This document shows, piece after piece, positions 38,009 through 57,782 of a DNA stretch of 58,722 bases (position 1 is its first letter; each line of letters begins with the position of its first letter). Source of the stretch: an uncultured bacterium. GTDB lineage: Bacteria > Armatimonadota > UBA5829. The stretch covers positions 1 through 58,722 of the forward strand of contig CAZFYZ010000007.1 of the NCBI GenBank assembly GCA_964523735.1, read 5' to 3'. The notes below the pieces were generated by a model. The model was not told the origin of the DNA. It worked only from the letters and a program-made list of their open reading frames with translations, and did no database searches. The position numbers and the translations under genes are program-made.

Positions 38009-38467
38009 CTAGTCCCACCACTGATAGCACAGGCTTATCTTCTCGATGGTATTGTCCGAGCTGCCGCCTTCGAGCTCATCGTATTCGAGTGATTTCACCC
38101 ACGCGCCATGCAGTGTCCAACGCCGGGTTTCGTTGCCTGAGCGGTCATAGCGAACGATATCGATGTCGCGCATATACTCTTCGGGCAGCGCTCCAACGCC
38201 AGCATTCACATCAGCCTGAAGCCGCACCCAGTCACGGGCGGCTTCATCTGACCCGTCGGCAAGCACGCCCTTTTCGAGAGTGATGTCCTCGAACTTCATG
38301 CGCCCTGCTACTTTCTGGTCGAACATCGAGCCCGCGGGGGCGAACGCCACCTCCTCGAACTCAGTCTTGGGTTCCTGGCCTTTCTTGAACAGAGCCACAT
38401 CGAAGCCGTTTATTTCAATGGCGAACTGCCAGTTCTGATACAGGCTCTGGGGCATTGTTGCTTCCAC
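38009..38467 (-). CDS. tail tube protein (T4 gp19-like family)
   Basis: FAIEINGFDVALFKKGQEPKTEFEEVAF..., KFEDITLEKGV and RRWTLHGAWVKSLEYDELEGGSSDNTIEKISLCY follow the tube pattern. The stop and start of the sheath and tube genes overlap. Confidence 0.85.
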   Translation of the reverse strand: MEATMPQSLYQNWQFAIEINGFDVALFKKGQEPKTEFEEVAFAPAGSMFDQKVAGRMKFEDITLEKGVLADGSDEAARDWVRLQADVNAGVGALPEEYMRDIDIVRYDRSGNETRRWTLHGAWVKSLEYDELEGGSSDNTIEKISLCYQWWD

Positions 38468-40314
38468 TAGATCACCTCCCGAAAAGCCGCGCCGGTCGCA
38501 GTCAGAATGAAGTTGAGCTCCACAAACTCGGCAGTCCTTGTGGGTTTCACGAACACCCGGCAGACCATCTGATTGGAGTCAATCATCTGTGCGGTATTGG
38601 TCTCATCATCACACTGCACGCGGAAGTCGTAGAACCCGCCCTTGCTCTTGATATTCTGCAGGAACGGTGTGATAAGCCTTACCAGCGCGCGCCACGTCTG
38701 CGAGTTGTTGGGTTCGAAGACCACGAACCGGGACGACTGTGAGATTGCTTCTTCCACATACATCATCAGACGGCGCACGTTGATGCGGTCAGTTGCGGAA
38801 GGCTGGCTCTGCAGCGTCCTCTGTCCCCATACGTTGATACCAGTGTCTGTAAACGACGCGATCACGTTGACACCTTCAGGATAGAGAACATCCCGTTCGC
38901 CGCGACTGGTCTTGTAGGCCAGAGATAGGGCATTGAAGACACGCCCCCTGTCGATACCGGCCGGTGCATACCAGACTTCAGCTTTCTCATCGCTCCTGGC
39001 TATACAGCCAGCGACGGCACCGGTGGGGGGCACAAGCTTCTTCTTGCCGTTGAGCGGATCGGAGATCTCTATCCACGGATAGTAAAGTGCCGCGTACGAC
39101 GAGTTGAAGGCTGCGTGGGTGTAGAGGCCCTGACCTTTTCGGAAGTCGACCACCTCAAGCGGTTCAAGGTAAATCGGTGCCTCGGCGATAAACAGCAGGT
39201 CCTTGCGGCCCTCTGCATAGGCGATACCGGCGTGGATCACCTGTGCTGTGGTGACGCCCGGTATGACTAGGATGTTCAGCGCGTCGATCTCATCGAACGC
39301 GTATAAGCCAGTATGAATTGCTGGCTCCCCTATATAATCGGAGTCTTGTATATTGGCTACGCCGTCTTCGCCGTCAGTGAGCCCATATCCACCTACCGCA
39401 GGGCGCTTCAGCGCAGTGGTGACAGGCACTTCCAGATCACGGATTGTTACAAACTCCGAGATCTCGTTTACGGCTGTCTCCACATATCGGGGGTGGTTGG
39501 GGTCCATCGACAAGTCCTTGAATACCTCAACTACCTCATCTCCCAGTCGCACTGTCAGATTGAAGAGGATGGTCGCATCAAGAGTGCTGTCGGCTATTTC
39601 AACTCTCAGTTCATCTCCCCAAGCGCCTTCGCTAAGTGCGCTGACTTCGACTGCACTGCGACCATCTATGCCGCCGCTCAGCGATGTTAGGCCGACGCCG
39701 CTAACCTCGTCAAAGTCTATACCGACGGCCTGGACGAGTAGAGAGGCGGCTGGATCCGCATTCACCGCATTTGTCACGGCGAAGACAGTGCTGGTGGCCA
39801 CCCCCGATCCATTGGTGGCCAGGTTGACCGTGATCGCCTGTTCGCTCACGCTGACAGAGAGCTCGGTGTCTATTCCGGACTCGACCAGTGTGATTCGTAT
39901 GCTGTTCCCGGCTAAACCGACTGTTCTGGCTCGCCAGGTGATCTGATTGACACCAGCTGTTCCGGTGGTGGCCGATGCGGCCACGCCTTCGCGGTTCATC
40001 AGAGTTGCCTGTGATTTGGCCGCCAGTAGACTGGTGGGTTCAGATTGGATCTGATAGTGCGCCACGCGGTTCACGTAGAGCACTTGTCCGCCGTTATCGA
40101 AGAACGATCTCGCTGCATAGGCAAGATAGCCGTCGTTGGTGTAGGAGCCGAACTTACGGATAAACTGCTCCCAGCTCGTGACCAGCGTGGGCTTGTTGAT
40201 TGGCCCTTTCTCCGCGATCCCGATCATACCGCACGCGGATGTGGAGATCTGCTTTATGTAGAAACTGAAATCCGTTTCCCGGGTATAGACTCCGGGCGAA
40301 AGATATGATGGCAT
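38467..40314 (-). CDS. contractile tail sheath protein
   Basis: MPSYLSPGVYTRETDFS...GMIGIAEKGPINKPTLVTSWEQFIRKFG is the canonical sheath N-terminus. The C-terminal INVIASF...GINVWGQRTL motif is present. Confidence 0.95.
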   Translation of the reverse strand: MPSYLSPGVYTRETDFSFYIKQISTSACGMIGIAEKGPINKPTLVTSWEQFIRKFGSYTNDGYLAYAARSFFDNGGQVLYVNRVAHYQIQSEPTSLLAAKSQATLMNREGVAASATTGTAGVNQITWRARTVGLAGNSIRITLVESGIDTELSVSVSEQAITVNLATNGSGVATSTVFAVTNAVNADPAASLLVQAVGIDFDEVSGVGLTSLSGGIDGRSAVEVSALSEGAWGDELRVEIADSTLDATILFNLTVRLGDEVVEVFKDLSMDPNHPRYVETAVNEISEFVTIRDLEVPVTTALKRPAVGGYGLTDGEDGVANIQDSDYIGEPAIHTGLYAFDEIDALNILVIPGVTTAQVIHAGIAYAEGRKDLLFIAEAPIYLEPLEVVDFRKGQGLYTHAAFNSSYAALYYPWIEISDPLNGKKKLVPPTGAVAGCIARSDEKAEVWYAPAGIDRGRVFNALSLAYKTSRGERDVLYPEGVNVIASFTDTGINVWGQRTLQSQPSATDRINVRRLMMYVEEAISQSSRFVVFEPNNSQTWRALVRLITPFLQNIKSKGGFYDFRVQCDDETNTAQMIDSNQMVCRVFVKPTRTAEFVELNFILTATGAAFREVI

Positions 40315-43285: not shown

Positions 43286-44149
43286 TTACGGCAGTATCTT
43301 TATCTTCGCGAGAATCTCGGGGCGAGTGATGCCCTGACCGAGTTCAGTCCAGACGAGCCAACCAGTCTTGAAGCGGGTCTTCTGCTCGATAGCCTCGGTC
43401 TTCAGGGACTCGCGAATAGGCATCTTGCCTACCTCGTCGTCCGGCAGCAGCAGAATCTCGCTCATATCGGCGGATGCAGTCAGCATAATGCCACCCGTGC
43501 CGTAGTTCTTGATGACACCCTTTGTGCGCAGTTCGGCGCGTGTCTCCGGGTCAAGATCCCAGTCGCGCATGTCGTTGAAGCGCCGCCCGCGCATCACGAT
43601 GTACTTGACCGAGAGCTCAAGGTCCTCGATGATCGAGATGGCCTCGTTAAGGGCGTCGTCGGTGAGCTTGCCACCGGTGACCTCGATTGTGTTCGCTGCG
43701 GGCACTGCTGCAGAGAGGACCGTGAGTGTTCTCTTGTCGACCTCCTTACGAATCTCGTCGGCCGCCGAGGTCTGTATGTCCATCAGGGTGCCGATATTGC
43801 CGTTCTTGAGGACACTCACATCGACCATTGGAGTCGAGTGAATCCGGTTGGTCGGGAACTCGACTTCGTCCTGTCCGAGTTCCTGCTCGCGGGCCTCGCC
43901 CTCCGTACTGATCCAGTAAGCCTTTACCTTGGGCTTCTTCTGGTAGATCGGGCGCTCGCCTTTCGGGAGAGTGTGCTGGGTGAGAAGAAGCGAGGTGATT
44001 TCCTTGCGCTTTATCTCCTCGTCGATGGGAGCCGCTATCGCTGCCGCCAGCGCACGCATCCCATCGGGAGACTCCAGGGCTTCGCTCATCAGGCGAGCCA
44101 TAGTCTCCATGTATTCCTGGCTGTGAATATTCACCTGGGTCGGTTCCAC
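43286..44149 (-). CDS. major capsid protein (HK97-fold type, no delta domain)
   Basis: 287-aa ORF after a DUF2190-like decoration gene and a scaffold gene, matching the lambda C/Nu3-D-E gene order. Size and composition are typical. No diagnostic motif was verified. Confidence 0.7.
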   Translation of the reverse strand: MEPTQVNIHSQEYMETMARLMSEALESPDGMRALAAAIAAPIDEEIKRKEITSLLLTQHTLPKGERPIYQKKPKVKAYWISTEGEAREQELGQDEVEFPTNRIHSTPMVDVSVLKNGNIGTLMDIQTSAADEIRKEVDKRTLTVLSAAVPAANTIEVTGGKLTDDALNEAISIIEDLELSVKYIVMRGRRFNDMRDWDLDPETRAELRTKGVIKNYGTGGIMLTASADMSEILLLPDDEVGKMPIRESLKTEAIEQKTRFKTGWLVWTELGQGITRPEILAKIKILP

Positions 44150-44537: not shown

Positions 44538-47500
44538 TTAGTTACTCTTGCCGGAACCCGCGAGACCAACCCGCTCACGGTAGGCAGTCATGAACCCGTC
44601 GCGGAGCTTGTCCTCGAGGGATACTTTCTTGTCGTCTACTTCCAGTGGGCGAACGTCCGCGTGGGAGCGCATCTGTCGATCCGCCGATGCCGAAGCGGAA
44701 TTCTCCTTCTCGCCAGCGCCCTTGTCATCGTCCTGCTTCGCAGCATTCGGACACTCAGACTTGGTCTGCACGGCCCTGTCATAAGCTGCCTCGGTAGCGG
44801 TGAATGCATCGTCGGAGAGCCCGGCGAGTCGGTTGATTTCCTGGTCCCTGTCCTCATCCGAGGCAAATGACATTCCAGCTTTTTCCAGCTTCTTCAGGAG
44901 CTTCTGCGCACGGGTCTTGTTGGCGGCTGCTTTGCTCTCCGCCTCCAACTCCTGGACCTGCTTTTGAAGCTCAAGCACCTGATTCTGAAGGTCTTTGTTC
45001 TCGGCCTCAAGCTCCTTTATGCGGGTCTTGTCATCGACCGCAGGCGCGGCCCCGCCGCCCGGGGCATCGCGTTTCTTCGCAGCCTCAAGCTGCTCTTCGT
45101 TGTCTTTCTGAATGTCGTCCACTGAGTTGCCTCCTGTGTTGTTACAACTGCATTGATTTGCCTCATGCGAGGCGACTTGTGTTATTCGCGCGTTTTCATC
45201 AGCGCCCTTGCGGTCCAAGAGTCCAAGGCCAGTGAATGTTACGCCGTGCAGGATTTCAAAGACGGGCTTGCCCTGATACTGCGCACCCTTGAACTTGCGG
45301 AGATGGACGCAGTAATCGTCTTTGCTGGTGACTCTCTTGCCGCAGATGGAGCACTCCCCGGTTTCATAGTCACACTCCATCGACACCTGGGTTATGATCC
45401 CGCGTTTCATGAGCTTGTAGGCCAGGGCGGCCGTGGGCGAATCGGTCGCATATAGCTCGCCCACGCACTCGACGCGCCCACCGGTTTCGTCTTCAACGAA
45501 GTCGGCCGCCATTATCCCGCCTACGATGTCAGTGAGTTCCTGGGAATGCTTGAGATCGATCTTCTTGTTGATAGCCGTGGTGTAGCGAGCCGCCAATTCG
45601 TCCGGGGTGAAATGGTCACCGTTTTTGTTGGTGCCCACGCGGCACATTATGAAGCTGAACTGCGGATCCCCCGCATTGGGGTTGAGGTCAACCGCTTCGG
45701 TTGAGAGTCCGTCTCTAACCTTGAGACTCACTTCCACGGGGATAGCTGTGTGGCAGTTTGAAGCACTAGCCGAGGCGATTGACCTTGGAGCCTGCCTGGA
45801 ACCCGATGCGATGAAAAGCAGTTCCCGCGCGTTCTTTCCTTCGCCGCCCTTGCCCATGACTATGCCGTATTCAACGTCCATGCCCTTGACCCGGACCTGA
45901 CCGAAGCGCTCAGCTAAGATGTCTTTGATCTCTTTCTCCGTTGGGAATGCACGGTCACGGTAGGACATGATCACGGTCTTGTATTTGCCGCGGGCTTCGG
46001 AGGCAAGGTTATCGATAAGGGATCGAATGGACTCCTTGTCATAGTGAGTGCGCGACTTGTAGCTTCGACGATTATCGTCGAGGAGTTCCTTATCCGCCCA
46101 GCGGTTCATTAGACCCTCGACGAAGTGCAGCGAGTACTCGTAGTCATTGTTCGAGAACTCAGTGATATACGGCGGGTCAAGATACAGCACATCCGCGCCG
46201 AACTTGCGCACGGCTTCGACCGCATCCCCTCGGAACACCTTGCATTCCTGTCCGCTATCGAAAACAAGCCGGTTAAGCTGGTTCGCGTAACGCTTGAAGC
46301 TCTCGACCATGCTGGAGATGGGAATGCTGGTGAGCTGGCTTTCTTTGAAACCACCAGCATACGCTCCCATCTCCGCTTCGGCATCTGTGCCGGATTCGCC
46401 CTTGAGATTGATCTTCGAGCGGTGGAACTGGCCGTAAAGGGCCTTTGCTTTCACAGTGTTACCGAGCGCCGCCAGCGCCAGGTCTTTCTTGTAGCCAGAG
46501 AGCTTCTGGATGTTTGCCCACACCTGCTCAAGCCAGGAGAGCACCTTCTTCGTGTAGTAATAACCGCTGAAGTTATCTACTATGAAGCTACCGGCATTGG
46601 GATTTGGCGCGAGTATTCGTTCAATATCTTCGTCTGAGAGCGTCTCATGAGAGTTCTCAACCACCGCCCGCGCGACGTGATACGGGAAGAGCAGGAGGTC
46701 GTTTGCTATGACCTTCAGCCCTTTACGCTTGAAGTGATATGCGACATTAGCCCCGCCGGAAAACGCGTCGACCACAGTCTTGGCATCCTTGGGAAGCTGG
46801 CGCTCGATCCAGCCGAGCATCACGTATTTGTTGCCCATGAAGCCCGTGACCTTGACCGGATCAGTTCCAGCCTGGCAGGAGAGCAGATCAAGGTCGCCAT
46901 CGAATGGCGAATCAGCCAGCGCCGCCAGGTTTTCATCGATGCGCGCGGTCACTTCCGGCGAGTGCCCATCCTCATCTGCCAGAGCGGATTTGCCGCCCTT
47001 GGTGCAGATAAACAGGCGCTCCATCGCAACCGAATTCTCGGAGTGCTTTGAGGAAATGTGATACTTGTGCTGCTGCGACTGCATTCGGCTGGACATGCCG
47101 CTTGCTGAGATGATGTCTTTCATCTCAGACTCGTTCGGGTAGGCATGGTCACGGTATGAGATGAGCCAGTTCGGAATGTGCTTCGCGCTCGCGAGAAACG
47201 TCGAGAAGAACTCGTTTGCATTCGCCTTGGTGACTGTCTTGTGTTCAGTCTGATAGTGTTTGGTCTTGGAATCCGTGACGAGCGTGAGCCCGTCCCAGTA
47301 GGTCATCAGACCCTCGACAAAGTGATAGCTCTTTTCGTAGTTGGTCGTGGAGAACTCGGTGGCGTAAGGCGGATCGAAATATGCCAGGTCGACCTTTGCC
47401 TCCGGCAGAACCTCATTGATGTCTTTGTTAAGGGCCTTACACTCTTTGCCGTTATCGAAGATGAGCGCATTGATGCGCGCGATGTTGTCGGCGAAACGCT

Positions 47501-48119
47501 CCCGGAACTCCTCGGGCGTGTCCTGTCGCTTTCCATAATCTGTGGATGAGGAGAAGTGACCAAAGCCGCCCTTGCCGGACATACAAGTTTTTCCGAGCGC
47601 AAAAAGAGCAATGTCCTTTTTGAAGCCCTCGAGCTTATCGGCGTTTGCGCGGATCTGGTCGATCACGCCATGCACGCCCTTAGCGAAGAAAATCCCTTTG
47701 AAGTTGTCTCGGACGAAGGTCCCAGCCTTTAGATTATCCGCTAAGAGAGCGGCAAGCTCGTCCTCGTCTATCCGGACGCTTGAGTTCTCAACAATTGCGC
47801 GCGCGGCGTGATAGCTATAGCGCAGCCGGTCGTTGGCGATGACCCGCAGGCCCTTAGTCTTGTACATGTAGGCCACAACGCCCGAGCCGGAGAACGCATC
47901 GATGACCGACCCGACATCCTCGGGCGTGTGCTTCCATATCCAGTCGATGAGCTTCTGCTTGGAGCCGATATAGTTGGTTATGTATTTCGGACGCTGGTCG
48001 GCTGGCAGTTCTTCAGTGACAAGCTCCGCAGCCTCGGCGAGAAGCTCGTCAAGGTGGCGCGATGCGTCCGTCTCCAGAAGAAAAGCAAGCCGATCATTGT
48101 CTGTGGCGAAAAGCTGCAT
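44538..48119 (-). CDS. fusion protein: two tandem Dam-like N6-adenine DNA methyltransferase modules plus prohead-protease-like domain plus coiled-coil scaffold
   Basis: 1193-aa uninterrupted ORF.
- Module 1 (aa ~45-375): YIGSKQKLIDWI, motif I IDAFSGSG, motif IV FDPPY (47364-47375).
- Module 2 (aa ~424-775): FMGNKYVMLGWI, VDAFSGGA, LDPPY (46167-46178).
- The two modules are clearly paralogous (KGLRVIANDRLRYSYHAARAIVENS versus KGLKVIANDLLLFPYHVARAVVENS).
- aa ~800-980: NKNGDHFTPDEL...KHSQ...FVEDETGG...QVSMEC resembles the S78-type prohead protease layout.
- aa ~1030-1085: coiled coil KELEAENKDLQNQVLELQKQVQELEAESK. Confidence 0.85.
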   Translation of the reverse strand: MQLFATDNDRLAFLLETDASRHLDELLAEAAELVTEELPADQRPKYITNYIGSKQKLIDWIWKHTPEDVGSVIDAFSGSGVVAYMYKTKGLRVIANDRLRYSYHAARAIVENSSVRIDEDELAALLADNLKAGTFVRDNFKGIFFAKGVHGVIDQIRANADKLEGFKKDIALFALGKTCMSGKGGFGHFSSSTDYGKRQDTPEEFRERFADNIARINALIFDNGKECKALNKDINEVLPEAKVDLAYFDPPYATEFSTTNYEKSYHFVEGLMTYWDGLTLVTDSKTKHYQTEHKTVTKANANEFFSTFLASAKHIPNWLISYRDHAYPNESEMKDIISASGMSSRMQSQQHKYHISSKHSENSVAMERLFICTKGGKSALADEDGHSPEVTARIDENLAALADSPFDGDLDLLSCQAGTDPVKVTGFMGNKYVMLGWIERQLPKDAKTVVDAFSGGANVAYHFKRKGLKVIANDLLLFPYHVARAVVENSHETLSDEDIERILAPNPNAGSFIVDNFSGYYYTKKVLSWLEQVWANIQKLSGYKKDLALAALGNTVKAKALYGQFHRSKINLKGESGTDAEAEMGAYAGGFKESQLTSIPISSMVESFKRYANQLNRLVFDSGQECKVFRGDAVEAVRKFGADVLYLDPPYITEFSNNDYEYSLHFVEGLMNRWADKELLDDNRRSYKSRTHYDKESIRSLIDNLASEARGKYKTVIMSYRDRAFPTEKEIKDILAERFGQVRVKGMDVEYGIVMGKGGEGKNARELLFIASGSRQAPRSIASASASNCHTAIPVEVSLKVRDGLSTEAVDLNPNAGDPQFSFIMCRVGTNKNGDHFTPDELAARYTTAINKKIDLKHSQELTDIVGGIMAADFVEDETGGRVECVGELYATDSPTAALAYKLMKRGIITQVSMECDYETGECSICGKRVTSKDDYCVHLRKFKGAQYQGKPVFEILHGVTFTGLGLLDRKGADENARITQVASHEANQCSCNNTGGNSVDDIQKDNEEQLEAAKKRDAPGGGAAPAVDDKTRIKELEAENKDLQNQVLELQKQVQELEAESKAAANKTRAQKLLKKLEKAGMSFASDEDRDQEINRLAGLSDDAFTATEAAYDRAVQTKSECPNAAKQDDDKGAGEKENSASASADRQMRSHADVRPLEVDDKKVSLEDKLRDGFMTAYRERVGLAGSGKSN

Positions 48120-48553: not shown

Positions 48554-48895
48554 CTAGCCACGATGGTCCGCGATCATTTGACAGACCACTTTGGCGCACT
48601 CCTCCGCCATCGCGTATTCCTCTGTCTCGACTATCTCGCCCCGCATCCCACGGTACGGCGACATCGTTTCCCGGTGATACTCCAAGAAGCCCTCCGGCAG
48701 GCTCTTGATGTCGTTCTCTACCAGCCGGTTGATGATCCAGTCTGCATCCTCCTGGAACTCGTCGTTTCCCGTCAGGTATTCTATCACTACATCCAGTCCC
48801 GGCCCGTGGCCCTGCACCCAGACGCCGACAGGCTCGTAGTGCGGGTTCGTCTCCCGGTCCCGGAGAGCATACTCAAGCATATACCTAAGCCGCAT
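48554..48895 (-). CDS. hypothetical acidic protein (113 aa)
   Basis: Clean ORF overlapping the preceding ORF by 11 nt. No motif recognised. Confidence 0.5.
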   Translation of the reverse strand: MRLRYMLEYALRDRETNPHYEPVGVWVQGHGPGLDVVIEYLTGNDEFQEDADWIINRLVENDIKSLPEGFLEYHRETMSPYRGMRGEIVETEEYAMAEECAKVVCQMIADHRG

Positions 48896-49367
48896 CCCAG
48901 TCCTCCGCTATCCGAATGTGCTCCTCAAGGATCTGCGCGTCGATGACCGCGAACTCGGCGGCATTCTCCAACTTATAGCGCTGCCACTTCCGCCAGGCAA
49001 CGACATAGTCGTGTTCGGTCGCATCCATGATGAGTTCGACGTGATACCTGCGGCCTCGGTCATCGTTAAGGTCGATGAGATAGGTGTCGTCCTGGCTCCA
49101 GTCGACCACCTTGATAGTGTGCGTGTATTGGTAGCCGTTGTTGTAGCCGACTGACTTGAACATAAGCCAGAAGTCAGTCTTGGTGATATTGCCCGCGGCA
49201 TCGAAATATGGTGCAACGCGTGTCACGACGAAGCTGTCGATAAGGCCAAAGGGCAGCGGCGTATCGTGACCCTCGTGCATTACCATGATGGAGCCCTCTT
49301 TATTGAACTCATCAAAGAACGCCTGCAGCCTCTGCTTTTCGCTCGCTATGAACTCTTTCATACTCAC
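48885..49367 (-). CDS. hypothetical protein (about 158-160 aa) coupled to the MuF giant gene
   Basis: A GTG at 49367 overlaps the MuF stop, or an ATG at 49361 is preceded by GAGGTGA. No motif recognised. Confidence 0.55.
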   Translation of the reverse strand: MSMKEFIASEKQRLQAFFDEFNKEGSIMVMHEGHDTPLPFGLIDSFVVTRVAPYFDAAGNITKTDFWLMFKSVGYNNGYQYTHTIKVVDWSQDDTYLIDLNDDRGRRYHVELIMDATEHDYVVAWRKWQRYKLENAAEFAVIDAQILEEHIRIAEDWDAA

Positions 49368-52300
49368 CTCACAAGAACAATATCTGCGACATTGCGACCA
49401 TCGGGCAGCACTGATACTCCGTGCTTCGTGAATACCGCGAGCACTTTGGTTCGCTCCGACTGGCTCGGAACCACTATGGCTTCCAGGTTGTCCAGAAGCG
49501 TCACGGAGTGCTTCAGGATGGTCTCATTGCTGGTGTTGCGCGCGTAGGTCTTCCATGTCTTAGGATCTGAGCCCCGGTGAGAGGCGACGTAATCGTCGGT
49601 CACCTTGCCGTAGGCATCGTGGTTGTAGCTTATCGCATCAGTCCGGCGCAGCAGGCGCTTCTTGAAGTAGAGCCCGTTCTCGGACGAGCCGCCAGAGAGT
49701 GGTGACTTCTTGATTCGCGTGAACACATAGGACGCGCCTCCGCTGCGCATGTCAGCCTGCGGCGACATTCCACCCGGCGCAATCCCGGAGCGAACCTTCT
49801 CCACAGTGCTTACCAGCGCGCCATTATTCTCAAGGACGGTATCGAGGAAGCTCGACATCGAGCCGGAGTTCGTCAGATTGTGGTGCAGGCTGTATCCGGC
49901 CATCTCTTTCTCAAGCTGTTCGTCGGAGATGTCGAAGCGATACTGGTATCTGTAGCCTCCGCCGATCTTCCTGTCCTTGAAACCCAACTGATACTCCCCG
50001 ATTGGATCATAGCCAGGCAGTTTCGTGATGTCGGAGACACCGAGGCGCTTTGCCCAGAATCCGCGCATGGCCTGGATGCGTTCGGCCTTGGTGGCGCTCC
50101 TTGCGTCAAGGTCGGAGACTAGCTTCGTGTATTCCGGCTCGCGGTCGGCCTTGGTGATGTAGGCTTGCTTTGTGAGATACATTATCTCCGCGTCATCGGA
50201 GGTGGCGATATTGGCTTTGACTCCCAGCTTCTCCATGTGCTCAAGCGCCCTGTCCAGGCTCTTCGCGTCGGGTCGCTCTGGAAGAGATATCTCAAGCTCG
50301 CCGCTATGCGCATAGAGGTTCTTTGATCCCCAGGGTCTATAGGTCGCCCGGATGCCGTCGCCAAAGTCTATCTCATACTGTTCGCCGTCGGGCATTGGAT
50401 GGCCATTGAAGAGCGTGGTCGTGGTGGCGGATTCACTTTCCACTGCAAGCTCGCCCTTTGACAGACTCCGCTTCTCCATCACGGCCTTGGTCTTTCTGAC
50501 CGTGAAGTCTGTGGCTTTGTCCCTCTGTTTGGCTGGCACACTCTTCCTGAGATACGCCTCGAACTTCTCCTGGAGAGGAGTCTTATCCCTTACGGCCTGC
50601 TGGGTTCTCTCCAGCCAGCCGATGTAGGTTTCGGCCATCTGCCGCACCTCGGTATCGTCGGACTTGGCGAGCTTTCTGAGTTCGACCAGATGCTTTTCGG
50701 CCTTGTCCAGAGTCGACTGGTTGTAACTTCCGTCCCCCGCGTGATGATTCACTGTCTTCACCGCCGCGAGGATGTCGGATGCGAAGCTGTCTTCATCAAG
50801 AGGCTCCCCGACCTTGGGCGCGCTCACCTGTCTATCGGCTTTGCGAAGCGCGGGAAGTATCTTCGCTTCTGCTTCGGGCCGGAGCTTCATCTTCACGATT
50901 GTGTGAGTCTGGCCCTTGGCCGTCTCGGCGAAGACCAGAGCGTTCTGGTCCTCGATGTCGTTCTCATCGATTGGCAGAGCCTTTCCCTGCCAGCCCAGTA
51001 TCCGCGCCTCCTCGATGATCTGTTCCTCCGCTTTCCCGATCCGTCCCACAACCCGAGCCTGGGCTGCATCCTCGAATCGGAAATCTGGCCTACCGAGCAC
51101 GTCCGAGTAGAACCCCTCGAAGTCGCTGCGCAGGCCGTGTTTCCTGGCGAGCGCCAGATCATAGAATGCTTTCCTCTGAGCTGGGCTCTTGGCGAACCTG
51201 CCCTCCACATACGGACGCAGCATCGCCAGGTAGTCATCGTCGGATATCTTCTCGACCTCGCGAATGTAGCGCAGCGTCACTGATGGATCTACCGCCACCT
51301 TGCCCTGCTTCGCCGCGCGAAAGAGCGTGTTGTAGAATGGCTCGCTTTCCCCGCAGGCTGCATTGGGATGGTAGTCAACAGATAGCTTGTCCGAGCCGAG
51401 GAACTTGAAAAGCTGTCCCTTGTCGATACCGTAGACTTTTCCATTTTTCGCGCGCAGGAACTGCTTAGCGTGTCCGTCGTGATTTGAGATAAGCCAGTCC
51501 ACGACGTGCTCGCGCTGAACCTGGGCTATCTCGTCGGCGGATAGCTCGGTGACATCAAGGCCGGAGAAGTCATACTTGGCCGCGAGGTCATTCCGCCATT
51601 TCTGTATGGACCCGGTGCGACCATTGAGACGAATCGTCCTGACTTCGATGGCTTCCGGATCGATGAGGCGGCCTATCTTATACGCGGCCTCCTCGCCTTG
51701 GGCGATAAAGTCATCCGATGCCTTACCGACCGGCTTGAACATCCACTTGTGCCCGTCGGCGTCAGTCCAGAACTCTTTTTCGTGAGCGCCGCCGACGCTT
51801 GCTTTGCCCTCATATTTGAAGCTTTCGGACTTACCGTGTGCGGCCCAGGCGGTATCGGCGTCATCGAACTCGCTACCTTTCTTTGCGAATGTGTTCGTGG
51901 TCGCGGTTGTGACGCTCTCGCTGACAGGCTCTGGCTGTGTCTTCGGCACTGAATGCTTGGCCACTGGCTGAGCCGCTTTGCCGGGCTTCGCCAGATGCTT
52001 CTCGGCCCACTTGGCATGCTTTGCTTCAATGCTGGCCTTGGACGCCGCGATCTTCGCCGTGTCCGTTTCGGTGAACAGGGTAGCGAGTTCATCTTTCGAG
52101 GCCCACTGCCAGTGCGCGACCTTCGTCTGTTTTGCCAGATCCTTAAGCTCGCCGGACTTCATCCCCCCGATCTGCTGGGCGAACGTAAGCTTCTTCACCG
52201 CTATCTCCTTCGCGTGCTGCTCGATAACTGTGACAGGCAGACCCGAGTCCTTTGCCAGTTCGCTTTCGGCTGCTTTCACGGAGTCGAGGAAAGATGAGTA

Positions 52301-53965
52301 TTGCGTGGGAGACGACGGCATCACTATCTGTGTCGTGGCATCCTTTAGGGCCTGTTCGGCCTTCTGCAGCGCCTCCTGCTTCGCCACGTCAAGTGCCTGC
52401 TGCTTGGCCTGGTCTGCCATCTTTTGGCCCGCGACCTTCTCCAGGGCCTTGGCGAGCTGCTCTTTGTTCTTCAGAGGCGGGATGCCGAACTTCTGCTTGG
52501 CGGCGATTAAGGTCTTGCCGGAGTAGTTGTAATGGTCTATGTGCGGCTCAAGGCCGTCCAGCATCTCAATGACTTCGCTCTTAGTGAGATTCAAAGACAC
52601 GCCGTGTTGCTTGGCCATCACCTTGAGCTGGACCATCGTCATACTTGAGAGGTCACTCTGAGGTGCGGCGTTTTTTGCCGCTTCCTCCAGGACTTTGGCC
52701 TGCTTGATCGCTGCCTGCTTCTCCGCGAGTAGCTTAGCCAGATCGTCTTTGCTACGCAGAGCGGCAATATTATACTGCTTGATCTTCGCCTGCAGAGCCG
52801 CGCCGGAGAGATCGGCATGGCCAACACCCGGCTCCGCCGCGTCGAGGAGCTTGATGAAATCGGTCTTGGTGCGGGCGATAGCTATGCCATTACCTTTAGC
52901 GAGAGTCTGAAGCTGCTTCACCGTAAGACCCGACAGATCCGCGATCTGGCCCGACTCGAATGCATCCTTGAGCTTCTTCTCTTCCTCGGCCTGCTGCTTT
53001 GCCTGTTCGTGGATCGCCTGCGGGGCAAGAATACATGCATTGGTCTTTGCGGCTGCGACGGTGCCCAGTTCGCCACCACAAATAACCAGTGGCCACGCCA
53101 CGATGCTGGTGCATCGGCAGTTGGGATGCGCTGGCTGACTGGGGAAGCGGTCGATATCAAAGACCTTGCCATCGAGGCCACCGCAGACCGGGCAGGTCCG
53201 CTCGTCCTCCATCGTCATCCACTCAAGCTGGCTTACGCCGACCTCCTTGTGGAACTTGATGCGGCCCTGGTTGTGCGCACGCAGCACTTCGGTCCGCGCT
53301 ATCGTCTCCATCCGGTACTGCGCTTTTGAGAACACTTTGGATCCGGCTTGGCGGAAGCTCTCCTTGTCCTCGATGACGCTACCCATATCGCGAACGATGT
53401 CGCGGACGCTTTTGCCGGTGGTGATACCGGAGAGGATAGTGCGCTTGATGCCGCTCGCCAGTTCCTGATGCACGTCACCCAACAGGACCAGGTTGTAGTT
53501 AGCCATGAAGTCGAGCGCGTCAGTGTCGATGAGAGTGAACACCGAGGTCGTGAGCTTATCGATCCCGTCCGCTGTCAGGTCCCTGTAAAACGGCATCTGC
53601 GCCGCCGAGAACTCATCTATTCCGCGATATACGCCGGAGCGAAATGACGCCTGGCTCGCCCTCTTGAACATCAGGCTTTGGTCCTTCTTGAGCGCCTTCA
53701 TCGCCTCCTGAATCTGGCCGTCGAGTTTCTCCAGACCATTCATGGCGGCGAGCTTGTTCTCAGGAAGCGACCCAACATCCTTGTAGACGGAGAGCGCCTG
53801 ACGCACATGGTCCTGCGCGGACTTCAGTGACTGCGAAAGCTCAAAGGCCACTTGCTCGGCGTACATATCACGAGCCATCAGGCTCTTGCCGGTCGCCTCC
53901 CGGATGGCCTGGGGCTGCGCATCGAGGTCGGCGACGGCGCACATCATAGGGGTGGACAAACTCAC
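49364..53965 (-). CDS. giant MuF / SPP1 gp7-family head morphogenesis protein with HeH/SAP-like repeats, kinase-like module and extra C-terminal domain
   Basis: 1533-aa ORF.
- MuF core (aa ~120-292): YRMETIARTEVLRAHNQG...ERTCPVCGGLDGKVF...PAHPNCRCT.
- Five HeH/SAP/Rho_N-like motifs between aa 340 and 635, for example LSGLTVKQLQTLAKGNGIAIARTKTDFIKLLD.
- aa ~725-930: WMFKP, GEEAAY, DWLISNHDGHAKQF and YGIDKGQLF give a kinase-like K / E / D-x-H-x-x-N-type loop / D-x-G layout.
- The C-terminal ~350 aa are unassigned. Confidence 0.85.
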   Translation of the reverse strand: MSLSTPMMCAVADLDAQPQAIREATGKSLMARDMYAEQVAFELSQSLKSAQDHVRQALSVYKDVGSLPENKLAAMNGLEKLDGQIQEAMKALKKDQSLMFKRASQASFRSGVYRGIDEFSAAQMPFYRDLTADGIDKLTTSVFTLIDTDALDFMANYNLVLLGDVHQELASGIKRTILSGITTGKSVRDIVRDMGSVIEDKESFRQAGSKVFSKAQYRMETIARTEVLRAHNQGRIKFHKEVGVSQLEWMTMEDERTCPVCGGLDGKVFDIDRFPSQPAHPNCRCTSIVAWPLVICGGELGTVAAAKTNACILAPQAIHEQAKQQAEEEKKLKDAFESGQIADLSGLTVKQLQTLAKGNGIAIARTKTDFIKLLDAAEPGVGHADLSGAALQAKIKQYNIAALRSKDDLAKLLAEKQAAIKQAKVLEEAAKNAAPQSDLSSMTMVQLKVMAKQHGVSLNLTKSEVIEMLDGLEPHIDHYNYSGKTLIAAKQKFGIPPLKNKEQLAKALEKVAGQKMADQAKQQALDVAKQEALQKAEQALKDATTQIVMPSSPTQYSSFLDSVKAAESELAKDSGLPVTVIEQHAKEIAVKKLTFAQQIGGMKSGELKDLAKQTKVAHWQWASKDELATLFTETDTAKIAASKASIEAKHAKWAEKHLAKPGKAAQPVAKHSVPKTQPEPVSESVTTATTNTFAKKGSEFDDADTAWAAHGKSESFKYEGKASVGGAHEKEFWTDADGHKWMFKPVGKASDDFIAQGEEAAYKIGRLIDPEAIEVRTIRLNGRTGSIQKWRNDLAAKYDFSGLDVTELSADEIAQVQREHVVDWLISNHDGHAKQFLRAKNGKVYGIDKGQLFKFLGSDKLSVDYHPNAACGESEPFYNTLFRAAKQGKVAVDPSVTLRYIREVEKISDDDYLAMLRPYVEGRFAKSPAQRKAFYDLALARKHGLRSDFEGFYSDVLGRPDFRFEDAAQARVVGRIGKAEEQIIEEARILGWQGKALPIDENDIEDQNALVFAETAKGQTHTIVKMKLRPEAEAKILPALRKADRQVSAPKVGEPLDEDSFASDILAAVKTVNHHAGDGSYNQSTLDKAEKHLVELRKLAKSDDTEVRQMAETYIGWLERTQQAVRDKTPLQEKFEAYLRKSVPAKQRDKATDFTVRKTKAVMEKRSLSKGELAVESESATTTTLFNGHPMPDGEQYEIDFGDGIRATYRPWGSKNLYAHSGELEISLPERPDAKSLDRALEHMEKLGVKANIATSDDAEIMYLTKQAYITKADREPEYTKLVSDLDARSATKAERIQAMRGFWAKRLGVSDITKLPGYDPIGEYQLGFKDRKIGGGYRYQYRFDISDEQLEKEMAGYSLHHNLTNSGSMSSFLDTVLENNGALVSTVEKVRSGIAPGGMSPQADMRSGGASYVFTRIKKSPLSGGSSENGLYFKKRLLRRTDAISYNHDAYGKVTDDYVASHRGSDPKTWKTYARNTSNETILKHSVTLLDNLEAIVVPSQSERTKVLAVFTKHGVSVLPDGRNVADIVLVR

Positions 53966-55509
53966 TTACTCTCGACCCTCCCTTCGACTCCGTTTGGGAC
54001 ATGCCTCGCCTGAAGGAAGCGGCACGCCGGAGTGTCGAAGGTTACCTCCGCATGCGTGACTCCGCAGCGATTGGTCTCGTCACCGAAGTAGGCGCAAGCA
54101 TCACAGACCTGGCCTGCGTGTTCGCCGCTTGCGAAGATCCCGGCCCACGCAGCTTCCGAGCGCGATCCGACTGGAGGGTTCTTGGCCGGGTCGAGCCCGA
54201 GCATCTCCTGGGCGCTCTCGATACTCATTATTCCGGCCACCACCATGTCGACTATGGGCTTCACCTGCTTCTCATCAAGCAGATCCACCGACTGACCTTC
54301 GCTGAGCCGGTTGGCCTGCTCGATATCCGGGTCCAGGTCCATCTTGAGCTGTAGGCTGGACTTACTGATGAGCTTGCGGTCGTAGAGCTCGATGAGGAGC
54401 TTCTTAAAATCCACGGCGTCTGTCGGATCGAGATCGTTGAAGAGGAACTGCATGCTCTTGCCCGCGTGCCCGGAGAGCTCGATCCAGTCGTCATATATCC
54501 ACTCAAGAATCGTGCGAGCGGCATGCTTTATCTCCCGGATCATGATGAGCATCTTCTGCATCGAGACCGAGGCCGTGGCGAAGTTGGGACCGTCACCCGT
54601 AACCAATGACCGCGAAAGGCCCAGCGCCACAACGATGTCTTCCTTGACCTCTTTGACCTTATCCTCGACATTCAGGACTTGGCCTTCGGTCCCATGGGTT
54701 TCCACCGTCACATAGAAAGGCACCACGAGGCCACTCTTGAGGTCCATTTTGTTGACCATGTCCCGAACCTGCTCGAGCATCTTCTGGTCGGGCATCACCA
54801 GCTTCTGGCCGAATGCTCCGCCGACCTTGAGGAGTCGAAATGGAGTCGCCCAACGTTTGGCAATGGCCTGTTCCGCGCGCCGATAATCCCTGAGTAGCTC
54901 AATGGATTGGAAAGCGGGAAGCACGAGCGAGTTACCGCGAGGTGAGAACTCAGGGGCGTCCCACTTGATGTGCAGCGTCTGTTCCACCGGCAGCGCAAGC
55001 CCTTCACCGGCCGCCGGTGTGTCCTCGGGATACTGCCGTACCTCAAGGAGTTGTCCTTGCGAATACTTCACCTTGACTGATACTGGGTTGACGCAAGTGA
55101 CCTCCTCGATATCGCATCCATCCTTGGTATAGCGCTTGAAACCTACAGCATCACCCTTCACCAGAAGCTGGAGGATCATGTCTTTCACGAACTCAGAGAT
55201 GCCGAGTTTGTCAGCGAGTTCATTAGCCTCAGTCTTTACCACGTCTTCGTCGCTTGTGATCTTTATCTCATCTCCCACGGCGAACGTGCGCCAGGAGTTG
55301 ACGCAGTTTTTGACGAGCGGCTCCTCGACATAGTACTCCCAGGCTTTGCGCGCCCGGTCTTCCCAGGAAGCGGGAATTGCATCGTTGGCGCTCACGCCGC
55401 TAAAGGCGGACGCGTCGAGTGCGGCAGCGCTGGCCAGTGCGGGAACCACGATTGCGTATGTTGAGTTCTGCTCCTGGAACTCCTGGTCTTCAGAGTTGGT
55501 GCTATTCAA
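53962..55509 (-). CDS. portal protein
   Basis: Lies between the TerL and MuF genes. The stop overlaps the MuF start (ATGA). Start reassigned to a TTG at 55509 with AGGAGGA 5 nt upstream. The 47 upstream codons of the track ORF are Arg/Cys-rich and run into the divergent promoter. Confidence 0.8.
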   Translation of the reverse strand: MNSTNSEDQEFQEQNSTYAIVVPALASAAALDASAFSGVSANDAIPASWEDRARKAWEYYVEEPLVKNCVNSWRTFAVGDEIKITSDEDVVKTEANELADKLGISEFVKDMILQLLVKGDAVGFKRYTKDGCDIEEVTCVNPVSVKVKYSQGQLLEVRQYPEDTPAAGEGLALPVEQTLHIKWDAPEFSPRGNSLVLPAFQSIELLRDYRRAEQAIAKRWATPFRLLKVGGAFGQKLVMPDQKMLEQVRDMVNKMDLKSGLVVPFYVTVETHGTEGQVLNVEDKVKEVKEDIVVALGLSRSLVTGDGPNFATASVSMQKMLIMIREIKHAARTILEWIYDDWIELSGHAGKSMQFLFNDLDPTDAVDFKKLLIELYDRKLISKSSLQLKMDLDPDIEQANRLSEGQSVDLLDEKQVKPIVDMVVAGIMSIESAQEMLGLDPAKNPPVGSRSEAAWAGIFASGEHAGQVCDACAYFGDETNRCGVTHAEVTFDTPACRFLQARHVPNGVEGRVESK

Positions 55510-55639
55510 TCTTGTCCTCCTGTCGGATGTAGCGTTTGTTCGCGCCACGTTCGCCAACGTCGCGCGAGTGCACCGAAGTGCGGTAAATCGGCCGAGCGCA
55601 CAAGCAGGGCGCGAGTAGTCGGCAAAGTGAAGTCTCATG

Positions 55640-55667
55640 TTGCGCCGCACAGGCTTTGTGGTATAAT
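55640..55667 (+). promoter_or_regulatory. sigma70-like promoter for the toxin-antitoxin pair
   Basis: TTGCGC (55640-55645), a 16-nt spacer, then an extended -10 TGGTATAAT (TATAAT at 55662-55667), 43 nt upstream of the antitoxin ATG. Confidence 0.4.
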
Positions 55668-55680
55668 AGAAATAGCTAAT

Positions 55681-55695
55681 TTCGCAATTTGCGAA
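55681..55695. promoter_or_regulatory. palindrome TTCGCAA-T-TTGCGAA, candidate antitoxin operator
   Basis: Perfect 7-bp inverted arms between the putative -10 and the antitoxin RBS. A third half-site, TTTCGCA, overlaps the start codon. Confidence 0.35.
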
Positions 55696-55709
55696 TCTTG
55701 GAGTTTCGC

Positions 55710-55982
55710 ATGTTACTCAAACTTAGAAAGAACGCTCAGATCACGCTTCCGGCCAATATCCGCAAGTCAGCACATCTCGAAGACGGTGATGTTCTGGATT
55801 GTGAGGTTCGCGATGGTCAGATAGTGCTCACACCCAAGAAGCTCATCGACAAGCGCGACGCTTGGTTTTGGACACCTGAATGGCAGCAGGCCGAAGCGCA
55901 GGCTCAGAAAGATATCCAGGAAGGAAACGTCCGCGAATTCGAATCCGTTGACGATCTGCTCGGACATCTCAAGGGAGATTAG
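55710..55982 (+). CDS. AbrB/MazE/SpoVT-family antitoxin
   Basis: MLLKLRKNAQITLPANIRKSAHLEDGDVLDCEVRDGQIVLTP is a SpoVT-AbrB looped-hinge-helix pattern. GGAG lies 7 nt upstream of the ATG. Confidence 0.8.
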   Translation: MLLKLRKNAQITLPANIRKSAHLEDGDVLDCEVRDGQIVLTPKKLIDKRDAWFWTPEWQQAEAQAQKDIQEGNVREFESVDDLLGHLKGD

Positions 55983-55985
55983 TCC

Positions 55986-56246
55986 GTGCGATTTGTCATC
56001 ACACATCGATTCGCTGACGCTTACCGCGCCTTGCCTGCAAGTCTGCAGAAGAAGACCGACAAAGCCCTGCGCTTTCTTGCCGAGAACCCCGCTCACCCGT
56101 CTCTTCGTCTGAAGAAAGTCCAGGGCGTCCAAGGCATATGGGAAGCGAGAGTCGACAGGTCCTGTAGGATGACTCTTGAGGTCCATTCCGATCACTATCT
56201 CCTTCGAAACGTCGGCAAACACGATGAGACTCTGGGCGATCCATAG
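55986..56246 (+). CDS. RelE/ParE-superfamily toxin
   Basis: 86 aa. F..AYRALPASLQKKTDKALRFLAENPAHPSLRLKKVQGVQGIWEARVDRSCRMTLEV..DHYLLRNVGKHDE is the typical RelE/ParE layout. It starts 4 nt after the antitoxin stop. Confidence 0.75.
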   Translation: MRFVITHRFADAYRALPASLQKKTDKALRFLAENPAHPSLRLKKVQGVQGIWEARVDRSCRMTLEVHSDHYLLRNVGKHDETLGDP

Positions 56247-56258
56247 AGCTGAGCCACA

Positions 56259-57782
56259 TCAAAGAAAGATCGGGTTCGTCAGTACCGGCATCACCGAGAC
56301 TGTCTCCTCACTCACCGTATCAAGGGTCGCCTGCCCGTGGGCGAGCATCGCGCAGCGCACCGCGTCTATGATGTGGTCGTTTCCCTTTGAGTAGATGATG
56401 TTGCCGTTTGAGAGTGTATAGGTGTGCGTCGTGAACTGATCCTCGACTTCCGAGTCATCAGCTGGCAAGATGATCTGACGCCTTTGCAGACCGCCATTGA
56501 TGAGCGTAGTCATCAGTTCCTTGGTGCGTTTCCTGACCTCGCGCCCATCCCTTACCGCGAGGGTGGTCACTCCGCCGAAGTCATATCCACGCAAACGCCC
56601 CTCAAGCTGGAGCGGCTTATACTTGTCGAGCGTTAGCAGTTCCTGGACGACTGCAAGGCCATTGCCGCCGTTATCGATGCCGATGCCGACGGGAGTGAAG
56701 TATCTTTCGAGAAGCGAGAGCACCTGCGCGATATGCGGGTACGAGACATGCTCCATGTGGATTCGCAGAATCATCGTCATGACCCGCCTGTCCGCGACGT
56801 CGTCCTCCCGGAACACTACAATCTCCGTCGGATCGTTGGTGTAGCCCAGGTCGCCACCTATCCAGAACACTCCGGTCTGAGGCATAAGATTGAGGAGCAG
56901 CTCTATCCGGTCATAGGATTCTTCTTCCGTTTCGCACCCGCGCAGATCACTTCCGATCAGAGATATCTTCCGATACTCGACAAGGTGCTGTCTGCAGAGG
57001 CTCAGATGCTCGATGTTGAATGCTCCGTATGACGGCTTACCGTGTTCTCCTGCGACCTCATGCTGCCAGCCGGCCGTGTCTCTGCCGCCATAGAATTCCT
57101 GGAGTTCTGCTTCCCGTTCATCATTCCAATTGGGATTCAGCCACGAGGGCCACCGGAACACCTTGAATTGGGCTGAACTCGTGAGCCGGTAGTAGGTCGT
57201 GTCGCGAAGCCCGTTGGGCGTCGAGTAGATGCGAAGCGTACCTCCCGCTCTGAGGCATTGTCGCAGGGCCTTCCATGCCTTTTCGGTCAGCCACGCACCC
57301 TCATCGACCCATACGCGCCCAACGTGCAGCGACCGGAACGCATCACCATAGGTGCTGGCTGGTCGGAAGTACAGCACAGAGCCGTTGGTGAACTCCAGTC
57401 GGAAGTAGGGCTTGCGATATATCTTGGGCTTGCCGAACTTAGTGAGCGCAATGCTCCTCATCAGCTCGGGGTTAGAATCGAGCTGAAACTCTATCTCCTC
57501 GATAAGACTGTCCAGATGCCCCTGATGCGGAGCAGCGACGAGACCTTGCGTACCGCGCGTCGTAAACGCGAAGTGCAGAGCGTCGGTCGTGATATTCACG
57601 CTCTTCCCGGCGTCACGCCCATCCAAGTGGATAATGTTTCTATCTTGGCATTTCAGATCCTCGATCTGGTGGGGCCAATAGCTGCGCGCGGAGCCGTCCC
57701 GGTTGCGCAGGTATCTCTCTCCCCACAGCACCGGGTCTCGCAGCGACATTCCCAGCCGCATTTCCTCGCTTGATATAACCAA
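56259..57782 (-). CDS. terL: terminase large subunit
   Basis: 507-aa ORF. Walker A-like LDGRDAGKS. An ATPase N-terminal half and a RNaseH-like nuclease C-terminal half (IGIDNGGNG...DHIIDAVRCA). First gene of the morphogenesis block. Confidence 0.85.
   Translation of the reverse strand: MVISSEEMRLGMSLRDPVLWGERYLRNRDGSARSYWPHQIEDLKCQDRNIIHLDGRDAGKSVNITTDALHFAFTTRGTQGLVAAPHQGHLDSLIEEIEFQLDSNPELMRSIALTKFGKPKIYRKPYFRLEFTNGSVLYFRPASTYGDAFRSLHVGRVWVDEGAWLTEKAWKALRQCLRAGGTLRIYSTPNGLRDTTYYRLTSSAQFKVFRWPSWLNPNWNDEREAELQEFYGGRDTAGWQHEVAGEHGKPSYGAFNIEHLSLCRQHLVEYRKISLIGSDLRGCETEEESYDRIELLLNLMPQTGVFWIGGDLGYTNDPTEIVVFREDDVADRRVMTMILRIHMEHVSYPHIAQVLSLLERYFTPVGIGIDNGGNGLAVVQELLTLDKYKPLQLEGRLRGYDFGGVTTLAVRDGREVRKRTKELMTTLINGGLQRRQIILPADDSEVEDQFTTHTYTLSNGNIIYSKGNDHIIDAVRCAMLAHGQATLDTVSEETVSVMPVLTNPIFL

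Follow-up and report, generated by a model that had tools for sequence, protein, structure and literature searches.

What purpose could the long C-terminal extension of a phage minor head protein serve? The question is raised by an open reading frame (ORF) of 1533 amino acids (aa), listed with a GTG start at 49364..53965 on the minus strand of a 58,722-nucleotide stretch of DNA from an uncultured bacterium (Armatimonadota, lineage UBA5829; GenBank assembly GCA_964523735.1, contig CAZFYZ010000007.1, positions 1 to 58,722). We refer to this whole stretch as the window and to the ORF as the big gene. From its N terminus, the encoded protein comprises a MuF domain of the SPP1 gp7 type, five helix-extended-helix (HeH) motifs, a protein-kinase-like domain, two domains of no known family that we call M and CN, and a terminal domain that resembles an ADP-ribosyltransferase (ART) of DarT-like fold. 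We favour, with moderate confidence, the reading that the big gene encodes a polyvalent effector that is packaged in the virion and delivered with the DNA.

Head-packed phage proteins act within the first seconds of infection. To our knowledge, few of them have been characterised (T4 Alt, the P1 Dar proteins and N4 vRNAP). The big gene product belongs to a general kind that is already published, polyvalent virion effectors anchored through MuF: they combine MuF, ART, kinase and Rho-N/SAP domains (PMC5512222), and head-packaged ARTs are enriched among myoviruses (PMC9503650). In the portions of these papers that were consulted and in the libraries searched, we found no description of this family, of its fixed C-terminal block, of the DarT-like terminal fold or of the recurrent pairing of kinase and ART. 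Judged from models and conserved residues, a kinase whose catalytic residues seem intact is always joined in this family to a probable ADP-ribosyltransferase.

A C-terminal block is constant across a widespread family

Full-length homologues of the protein fall into more than 100 clusters, with identities of 46–94%. An exhaustive HMMER search with a profile of the ART-like domain reached 1597 representative clusters (50% identity) at the threshold of E ≤ 1e-3, of which 385 also passed E ≤ 1e-30; nearly always, the domain lies at the C terminus of proteins of 1000–3200 aa. Databases label these proteins merely 'minor capsid protein' or 'unknown function'; phrog_6577, one of the latter, spans aa 50–1380 of the window protein (E = 3e-203). 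Among species-representative genomes, the C-terminal domain is present in more than 10 phyla at 54–93% identity (55–82% over full-length matches). It occurs in prophages, and its hosts include Armatimonadota (closest to the window), Acidobacteriota, Desulfobacterota, Nitrospiraceae (Nitrospirota), Hydrogenedentota and Verrucomicrobiota, and further Phycisphaerae (Planctomycetota), Dehalococcoidia, Zixibacteria and Gammaproteobacteria. Cultured carriers include Desulfosarcina alkanivorans PL12, D. widdelii PP31, Syntrophus buswellii DM-2, Desulfofustis glycolicus DSM 9705 and Ectothiorhodospira shaposhnikovii DSM 243, and the isolated cyanophage Pan1 encodes a shorter relative, gp15, composed of MuF, M and ART-like domains. 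The existence of cultured lysogens and of this phage makes the effector hypothesis directly testable.

Local hidden Markov models, one for each region, were run on 148 fetched representatives. The block of M, CN and ART-like domains was terminal and constant in essentially all of them, with M between the kinase and the CN–ART-like pair and CN always directly before the ART-like domain. The kinase type of the window was detected in 46 of the 148. The remaining members, about two thirds of the family, carry a second kinase-like type at the same position (K2; for example, aa 1585–1840 of relative P0185), with the motif GSNxGG...YYxK...RNE...NWDVVG..DN...IDVGG. K2 is homologous to the window kinase type (hhalign probability 96.5%, E = 7e-10, 206 columns) and occupies the same place, so the notion that many relatives have no kinase was rejected. 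On these sequence comparisons, kinase, M, CN and ART-like domains form a single conserved four-domain unit. Because this unit is constant, the kinase and the ART-like enzyme probably cooperate rather than being independent cargo.

What varies across the family is the middle of the protein. Among 27 K2-type members, Pfam identified Phage_Mu_F in 23, NUDIX in 8, HipA_C in 6, and a few Zeta toxin domains and metallopeptidases. Some K2-type proteins carry a Zeta-toxin kinase plus a NUDIX domain.

A constant C terminus combined with a variable middle is the pattern of polyvalent proteins and the opposite of that of polymorphic toxins, which are defined by the exchange of C-termini and immunity genes. 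The polymorphic-toxin architecture suggested by the initial annotation is thus not supported by comparison with the 148 representatives. It is quite improbable that the gene encodes a MuF-type toxin for interbacterial competition, released at prophage induction, with two small ORFs next to the big gene as its cognate immunity proteins. Fusions of MuF to toxins are established (PMC5576092), the prophage ART Bxa has two immunity proteins encoded nearby (PMC11699363), and here the big gene is in every case followed by two small ORFs with no known family, while its homologues are located in prophages with integrases. However, the C-terminal block is the conserved core of the family, its last domain holding the identity given above across phyla, and the small ORFs are themselves conserved between phyla (38–49% identity) rather than diversifying; Pfam, PADLOC and NCBIfam searches of the two returned neither a macrodomain nor an ARH nor another known immunity fold.

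Two side observations concern the distribution of the ART-like domain. A 9.1-Mb metagenome-assembled genome of Bryobacterales (OZ252029.1) contains four copies of it (L021, L050, L071 and L078), three of them within about 120 kb, which suggests several related prophages or a duplicated region. A 1.3-kb contig (L053) binned as a Methanomicrobiaceae archaeon gives one match, which could be either a binning artefact or a real relative from an archaeal virus.

The kinase domain has the features of an active enzyme

An AlphaFold2 model of aa 695–1125, built on 47 sequences, had a mean pLDDT of 85, with aa ~700–960 above 90, and displayed a bilobal kinase fold with a confident helical C-lobe. Foldseek returned 289 PDB matches at E ≤ 1e-3, and the best 50 of the 289 were all protein kinases; the top match was the Ser/Thr kinase CtkA of H. 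pylori (3akl, E = 9e-6, target TM-score 0.51). Pfam HipA_C matched the catalytic loop weakly, over 28 residues and at 21.6 bits, which is under its gathering score of 30.5. The model and this comparison with known kinases bear out the call of a kinase-like module of HipA/CtkA/PI3-4K type, first made from sequence landmarks (the FKP lysine, GEEAAY, NHDGHAKQF and IDKG).

Those landmarks proved real, and the catalytic-type residues within them are conserved. Among 43 diverse relatives, K744, N828, D830 and D848 were present in 43/43, H832 in 42/43 and E759 in 38/43, while position 835 was Q in 29/43 and N in 13/43. The roles given to the set K744, E759, D830-x-H832-x-x-Q835 and D848 were set by motif order and by the alignment to the HipA_C loop. 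A DxHxxN catalytic loop is typical of HipA and PI3/4-kinases. Since the landmark residues are nearly invariant and Q or N at position 835 fits this loop, aa ~700–960 look like an active kinase and not a pseudokinase.

The terminal domain has a probable DarT-like fold

An AlphaFold2 model of aa 1160–1533 reached a pLDDT of 88 and a pTM of 0.84. Its top five PDB fold matches were all DarT (7omw, 7omy, 7omv, 7omx and 7yk3), from two species, Thermus and M. tuberculosis, at probabilities of 0.77–1.0, E-values of 0.01–0.08 and TM-scores of about 0.5 over about 217–250 columns. Later matches had a probability of 0.2 or below, leaving DarT as the only credible structural match. We placed the fold on aa ~1315–1533, because only this part of the model is long enough for the alignment. 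In BFVD, the top matches were uncharacterised giant-virus proteins, a 932-aa ParB-domain protein of Bacillus phage CP-51 and a 'minor capsid protein'. The M, CN and C-terminal domains had no PADLOC or NCBIfam match, and searches of PDB sequences with the whole protein and with family profiles found only histone H3 and nanobodies, at chance level.

ARTs of the DarT/PARP type have a His–Tyr–Glu (H-Y-E) layout on strands. In the window family, H1362 was found in 138/142 relatives, Y1413 in 140/142, R1417 in 141/142 and E1481 in 142/142; S1401 and D1405 were present in 142/142, and R1392 and D1450 are likewise conserved. The model predicts that E1481 opens a strand, that H1362 closes one and that Y1413 lies directly before one. 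An H-Y-E layout had been proposed, very tentatively, from the motifs HHNL, GGASYVFTR and SNETIL. Conservation in the 142 relatives upholds these motifs, except that in HHNL only the second His (H1362) is kept, and the DarT fold matches agree with the layout itself. Pfam DarT (PF14487) did not match the window protein at E ≤ 10, but one of 25 diverse relatives (P0253) gave a weak match (E = 0.03, 14.5 bits against a cut-off of 22.5), in which residues 132–198 of its segment pair with profile positions 125–190 of 201, co-linearly and across the invariant Glu. This match, at chance level alone, counts because it agrees with the fold result. On the model and the conserved residues, we consider it likely that the C-terminal domain is an ART of DarT-like fold.

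Several points weigh against a delivered effector that carries this activity. The window protein had no match to an ART family in Pfam, PADLOC, NCBIfam or PDB profile searches; the DarT matches from Foldseek reach no better than E-values of about 1e-2 and TM-scores of about 0.5; and the equivalence of H1362, Y1413 and E1481 to the NAD+ site of DarT is presumed from their order. The invariant polar residues R1392, S1401, D1405, R1417 and D1450 could mean a chemistry that is non-canonical with respect to H-Y-E ARTs. The protein is also large, at 1533 aa, and a literature search on Pan1 turned up no virion proteomics that covers gp15.

The points that concern the terminal domain, together with a Pfam DarT match in a single relative and in the chance range, would suit a domain that is not an ART but another enzyme, or a structural or ejection module, that is merely DarT-like at low TM-score, leaving the kinase as the sole effector. 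We regard this as unlikely. All of the five best matches are DarT, from two organisms, followed by a sharp drop in probability; the P0253 match is co-linear and covers the invariant Glu; H, Y and E stand at or beside predicted strands in the expected order; NUDIX domains occur in 8/27 relatives; and in related phage proteins the corresponding C-terminal place is taken by a bona fide ART paired with the kinase.

Kinases and ARTs are paired in other phage head modules

At 31–34% identity and with E-values down to 1e-33, the kinase domain matched proteins of mycobacteriophages that bear the annotation 'minor capsid and ADP-ribosyltransferase fusion'. McProf gp54 has the kinase at aa 478–729 (E = 9e-49 to the kinase profile) and a separate C-terminal ADPrib_exo_Tox domain at aa 1007–1176, and Onyinye gp16 is built in the same way, with the same kinase family and a C-terminal ADPrib_exo_Tox. 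Both thus share with the window protein a kinase of one family within a capsid-protein fusion that ends in an ART, but differ from it in having a VG15 N-terminus instead of Pfam MuF, a classical ADPrib_exo_Tox ART and neither M nor CN. A metagenomic phage contig (L005, 430–5464) encodes two ADPrib_exo_Tox proteins of 217 and 708 aa, directly followed by a fusion of a kinase of this family with an XkdF prohead protease (P0131). These three independent kinase–ART contexts in phage head modules support a functional link between the two enzymes and the ART reading of the C-terminal domain. The repeated pairing, which includes classical ARTs in unrelated phages, suggests that phosphorylation and ADP-ribosylation are functionally linked, in a way so far undescribed, when phages take over the host or counter its defences.

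A kinase cargo on MuF had been expected to be unusual. This is not supported: each family member examined has the kinase or its homologous type, the mycobacteriophage capsid fusions have one, and kinases of polyvalent proteins were reported in 2017.

We also considered whether the 'ADP-ribosyltransferase' label of the mycobacteriophage proteins refers to their kinase-like region, and rejected this, as Pfam puts the ART in the separate C-terminal ADPrib_exo_Tox domain. On contig L005, a gene for a SAP-domain protein lies further downstream, so that the same functions occur there as separate head-module genes.

The protein is probably delivered with the phage DNA

Near the N terminus, where a MuF/SPP1 gp7 core had been annotated initially, Pfam finds PF04233 Phage_Mu_F on aa 173–287 (E = 3e-16; 60.5 bits, curated cut-off 29.6). 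PHROG minor head protein families cover aa 73–289 (E about 1e-29), and together with head morphogenesis families they reach aa 73–292. SPP1 gp7 is a MuF-type protein that enters the procapsid at the portal. By analogy, the MuF domain is presumed to be the capsid- or portal-targeting part of the window protein.

The five HeH motifs of SAP/Rho_N type that had been noticed after this core were all located, at aa 343–378, 384–418, 437–472, 479–512 and 600–634. Scanned as a separate segment, motif 3 passes the Pfam Rho_N threshold (27.8 bits, cut-off 24.9) and is borderline for Pfam SAP (22.5 bits against a cut-off of 23.9), whereas motifs 1, 2, 4 and 5 are placed by internal similarity only. Shuffling tests gave z-scores of 16 between motifs 1 and 3, 7 between motifs 2 and 4 and 6.4 between motifs 2 and 5; the first two of these similarities indicate a tandem duplication of a two-motif unit (1+2 and 3+4), to which a fifth copy is added. 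The five motifs are presumed to bind double-stranded DNA (dsDNA). Around the fifth of them (aa 579–646; 52028–52231, minus strand), the family profile also resembles the histone H3 fold, at chance level (E = 0.17–1). Polyvalent proteins rarely carry histone-fold domains (PMC5512222).

The idea of an ejected, capsid-internal effector, already voiced in the initial annotation, fits the position of the gene between the portal gene and the scaffold and protease genes, and it fits the concept of polyvalent proteins (PMC5512222, PMC9503650). The scheme that we infer covers packaging, ejection, the enzymatic activities, their substrates and the coupling of the enzymes. As for SPP1 gp7, the MuF domain would lead the protein, in a few copies, to the portal and so into the procapsid, where the HeH/SAP motifs would hold it onto the packaged dsDNA. 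Upon infection the protein would leave the head together with the DNA, and the kinase and the NAD+-dependent DarT-like ART could then act in the host near the entering genome. There they would be likely to disable the defences of the host or its DNA-bound proteins, or else to modify nucleic acid. Precedents are T4 Alt and the head-packaged ARTs enriched among myoviruses (PMC9503650), and also the T7 kinase, in which a DNA-binding domain steers phosphorylation to DNA-bound proteins and so disarms defences (PMC13645617).

The enzymes might instead act on the phage's own DNA or on the contents of the capsid and not on host proteins, for example with the DarT-like domain ADP-ribosylating bases or phosphorylated DNA ends as a protection against host nucleases and the kinase preparing or modifying the target, in concert with the adjacently encoded, capsid-targeted DNA methyltransferases. 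DarT, the sole fold match, modifies DNA (PMC9503650), the chain also holds the five presumably DNA-binding HeH motifs, the kinase and the ART-like domain are obligately linked, and in the head gene nearby two DNA adenine methyltransferases are fused to a protease and a scaffold. We nevertheless judge such a role doubtful: no DNA modification has been observed, the kinase fold is nearest to protein kinases, and the partners in mycobacteriophages are ADPrib_exo_Tox ARTs, which typically modify proteins. A filled capsid, moreover, has no supply of NAD+ or ATP, which would confine any action to packaging or to the time after ejection.

A broader proposal, to which we also assign a low probability, is that kinase–M–CN–ART-like works as one machine of two obligately coupled enzymes, which phages of more than 10 bacterial phyla carry in their heads and which acts on nucleic acid and not on protein. 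The HeH-tethered DarT-like domain might then ADP-ribosylate host DNA, which would halt replication, or phage bases or ends, which would protect them, while the kinase might prepare the target or control the transferase. If true, the block would mirror, on the side of the phage, the DarT toxin of bacterial defence, and it would represent a new type of capsid-delivered DNA-modifying system.

Comparison with known systems

The virion-packaged effector that we favour is closest in kind to the polyvalent proteins of Iyer et al. 2017 (PMC5512222). Those are likewise large, multi-domain, virion-associated proteins with MuF, kinase, ART-type and Rho-N/SAP domains, encoded among head genes, and the relatives found here, like them, add NUDIX, Zeta-toxin kinase and metallopeptidase domains. 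Their ART is of the H-Y-D 'HYD2' type, whereas the domain described here is DarT-like, has an invariant Glu and matches no Pfam ART model. Their kinase, as described, is without a C-terminal lobe, whereas the present one has a confident helical C-lobe. In the sections of PMC5512222 and PMC9503650 that were consulted, the fixed kinase–M–CN–ART-like block is not mentioned. MuF toxins as described by Jamet et al. 2017 (PMC5576092) and Bxa (PMC11699363) have in common with the window protein an N-terminal phage-derived domain joined to a C-terminal enzyme, a prophage location and small downstream ORFs. In contrast to these toxins, the window family has a conserved C terminus, conserved downstream ORFs of unknown fold and a complete head–tail module.

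T4 Alt is also an ART-type enzyme that travels in the head and enters the host along with the DNA, as is presumed for the window protein, but it is an R-S-E (Alt/VIP2) ART and has no MuF fusion, whereas the present domain has a DarT-like fold and is fused with a kinase. T7 Gp0.7 (T7K), a phage kinase with a DNA-binding module, provides a model for the phosphorylation of DNA-bound host and defence proteins; it differs in being made early from the genome and not packaged, and it belongs to a different kinase lineage with no detectable sequence relation (PMC13645617).

DarT (7omw, 7omy, 7yk3) shares with aa ~1315–1533 the fold match and the conserved His...Tyr...Glu order. The identity is about 12%, there is no Pfam DarT match, and the context is that of a phage structural protein rather than of a bacterial toxin–antitoxin defence; a DarG-type macrodomain partner was absent from the neighbouring ORFs in Pfam, PADLOC and NCBIfam searches. 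CtkA of H. pylori and the HipA kinases share with the kinase domain the fold (3akl being the best match), the DxHxx[N/Q] loop, a DFG-like Asp and the weak HipA_C match, and differ from it in their low identity (11–16%), in the HipA_C score being under the gathering threshold and in their biological context.

Gene neighbourhood

The window is a (pro)phage of myovirus type, with genes for a large terminase (56259–57782), portal, major head protein (43286–44149), tail sheath (38467–40314) and tape measure protein (33556–37170). The order is terminase, portal, big gene, two small ORFs, a methyltransferase–protease–scaffold fusion and major capsid protein (Table 1). The big gene overlaps the stop of the portal gene with its start and the start of the 160-aa ORF with its stop, by 4 nt in each case, which points to translational coupling inside a head-gene operon.

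Table 1 Features of the big gene and its neighbours (window coordinates)
Feature	Coordinates	Strand	Basis or remark
Whole gene: MuF–HeH–kinase–M–CN–ART-like polyvalent head protein	49364..53965	-	1533 aa; ORF list, phrog_6577, homologues
MuF / SPP1 gp7-type minor head domain, aa 73–292	53090..53749	-	Pfam and PHROG
Five HeH (SAP/Rho_N-like) motifs, aa 343–634, 2+2+1 layout	52064..52939	-	Pfam and internal repeats
Protein-kinase-like domain, HipA/CtkA/PI3-4K type, aa 700–960	51086..51868	-	AlphaFold2 and Foldseek, residue conservation
M domain, aa 985–1120: beta-hairpin and helices, no known family	50606..51013	-	AlphaFold2, local hidden Markov model
CN domain, aa 1160–1314: beta-sheet and four helices, no known family	50024..50488	-	AlphaFold2, local hidden Markov model
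ART-like (DarT-like fold) domain, aa 1315–1533	49367..50023	-	Foldseek, conservation
Portal protein gene	53962..55650	-	Pfam Portal_Mu / Phage_portal; directly upstream of the big gene
160-aa ORF	48885..49367	-	Translationally coupled to the big gene; kept between relatives; no known family
113-aa ORF	48554..48895	-	Second ORF downstream of the big gene; kept between relatives; no known family
Two D12-class DNA adenine methyltransferases, XkdF-like prohead protease and coiled-coil scaffold, fused	44538..48119	-	Pfam, PHROG

The same gene order recurs in the prophage of Verrucomicrobia S94 (L004) and in a second prophage (L006), where the small ORFs encode about 160 and about 115 aa. On the short metagenomic contig of P0119, a relative at 35% identity, it holds from the big gene onward, with two small ORFs and a 1172-aa gene whose size matches that of the methyltransferase–protease–scaffold gene. 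No match was obtained when an 18.7-kb region was compared with GenBank phages by megablast.

The 160-aa ORF is 38% identical to the syntenic ORF of the S94 prophage and occupies the same place in L006 and on the P0119 contig; the 113-aa ORF is 49% identical to its syntenic S94 counterpart. Neither gave a match in Pfam, PHROG, PADLOC, NCBIfam or PDB sequence searches. The product of the 160-aa ORF is a candidate chaperone, inhibitor or immunity protein.

The methyltransferase–protease–scaffold fusion, of 1193 aa, is matched by Pfam MethyltransfD12 in two stretches, by phrog_27806 and by the PHROG for head maturation protease. It is 48–67% identical to its S94 homologue, and because this homologue has just one methyltransferase copy, the window fusion carries a tandem duplication of the methyltransferase. 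Its make-up resembles a capsid-targeted DNA methyltransferase and recalls P1 DarB.

Two ORFs that run in the opposite direction are inserted between the genes for terminase and portal: one at 55689–55982 (plus strand) matches a MazE/AbrB-type antitoxin (Pfam, E = 6.5e-9) and one at 55986–56246 (plus strand) weakly matches a ParE-like toxin (E = 0.003); the two are likely to form a toxin–antitoxin pair. The biggest gene of the window, an ORF of 1594 aa at 4110–8894 (minus strand), had no PHROG match at E ≤ 0.001 and carries no annotation at all. A further large ORF at 17559–21143 (minus strand; 1194 aa) has strong matches solely to PHROGs of unknown function: phrog_877 (E = 2e-239), phrog_358 and phrog_5986.

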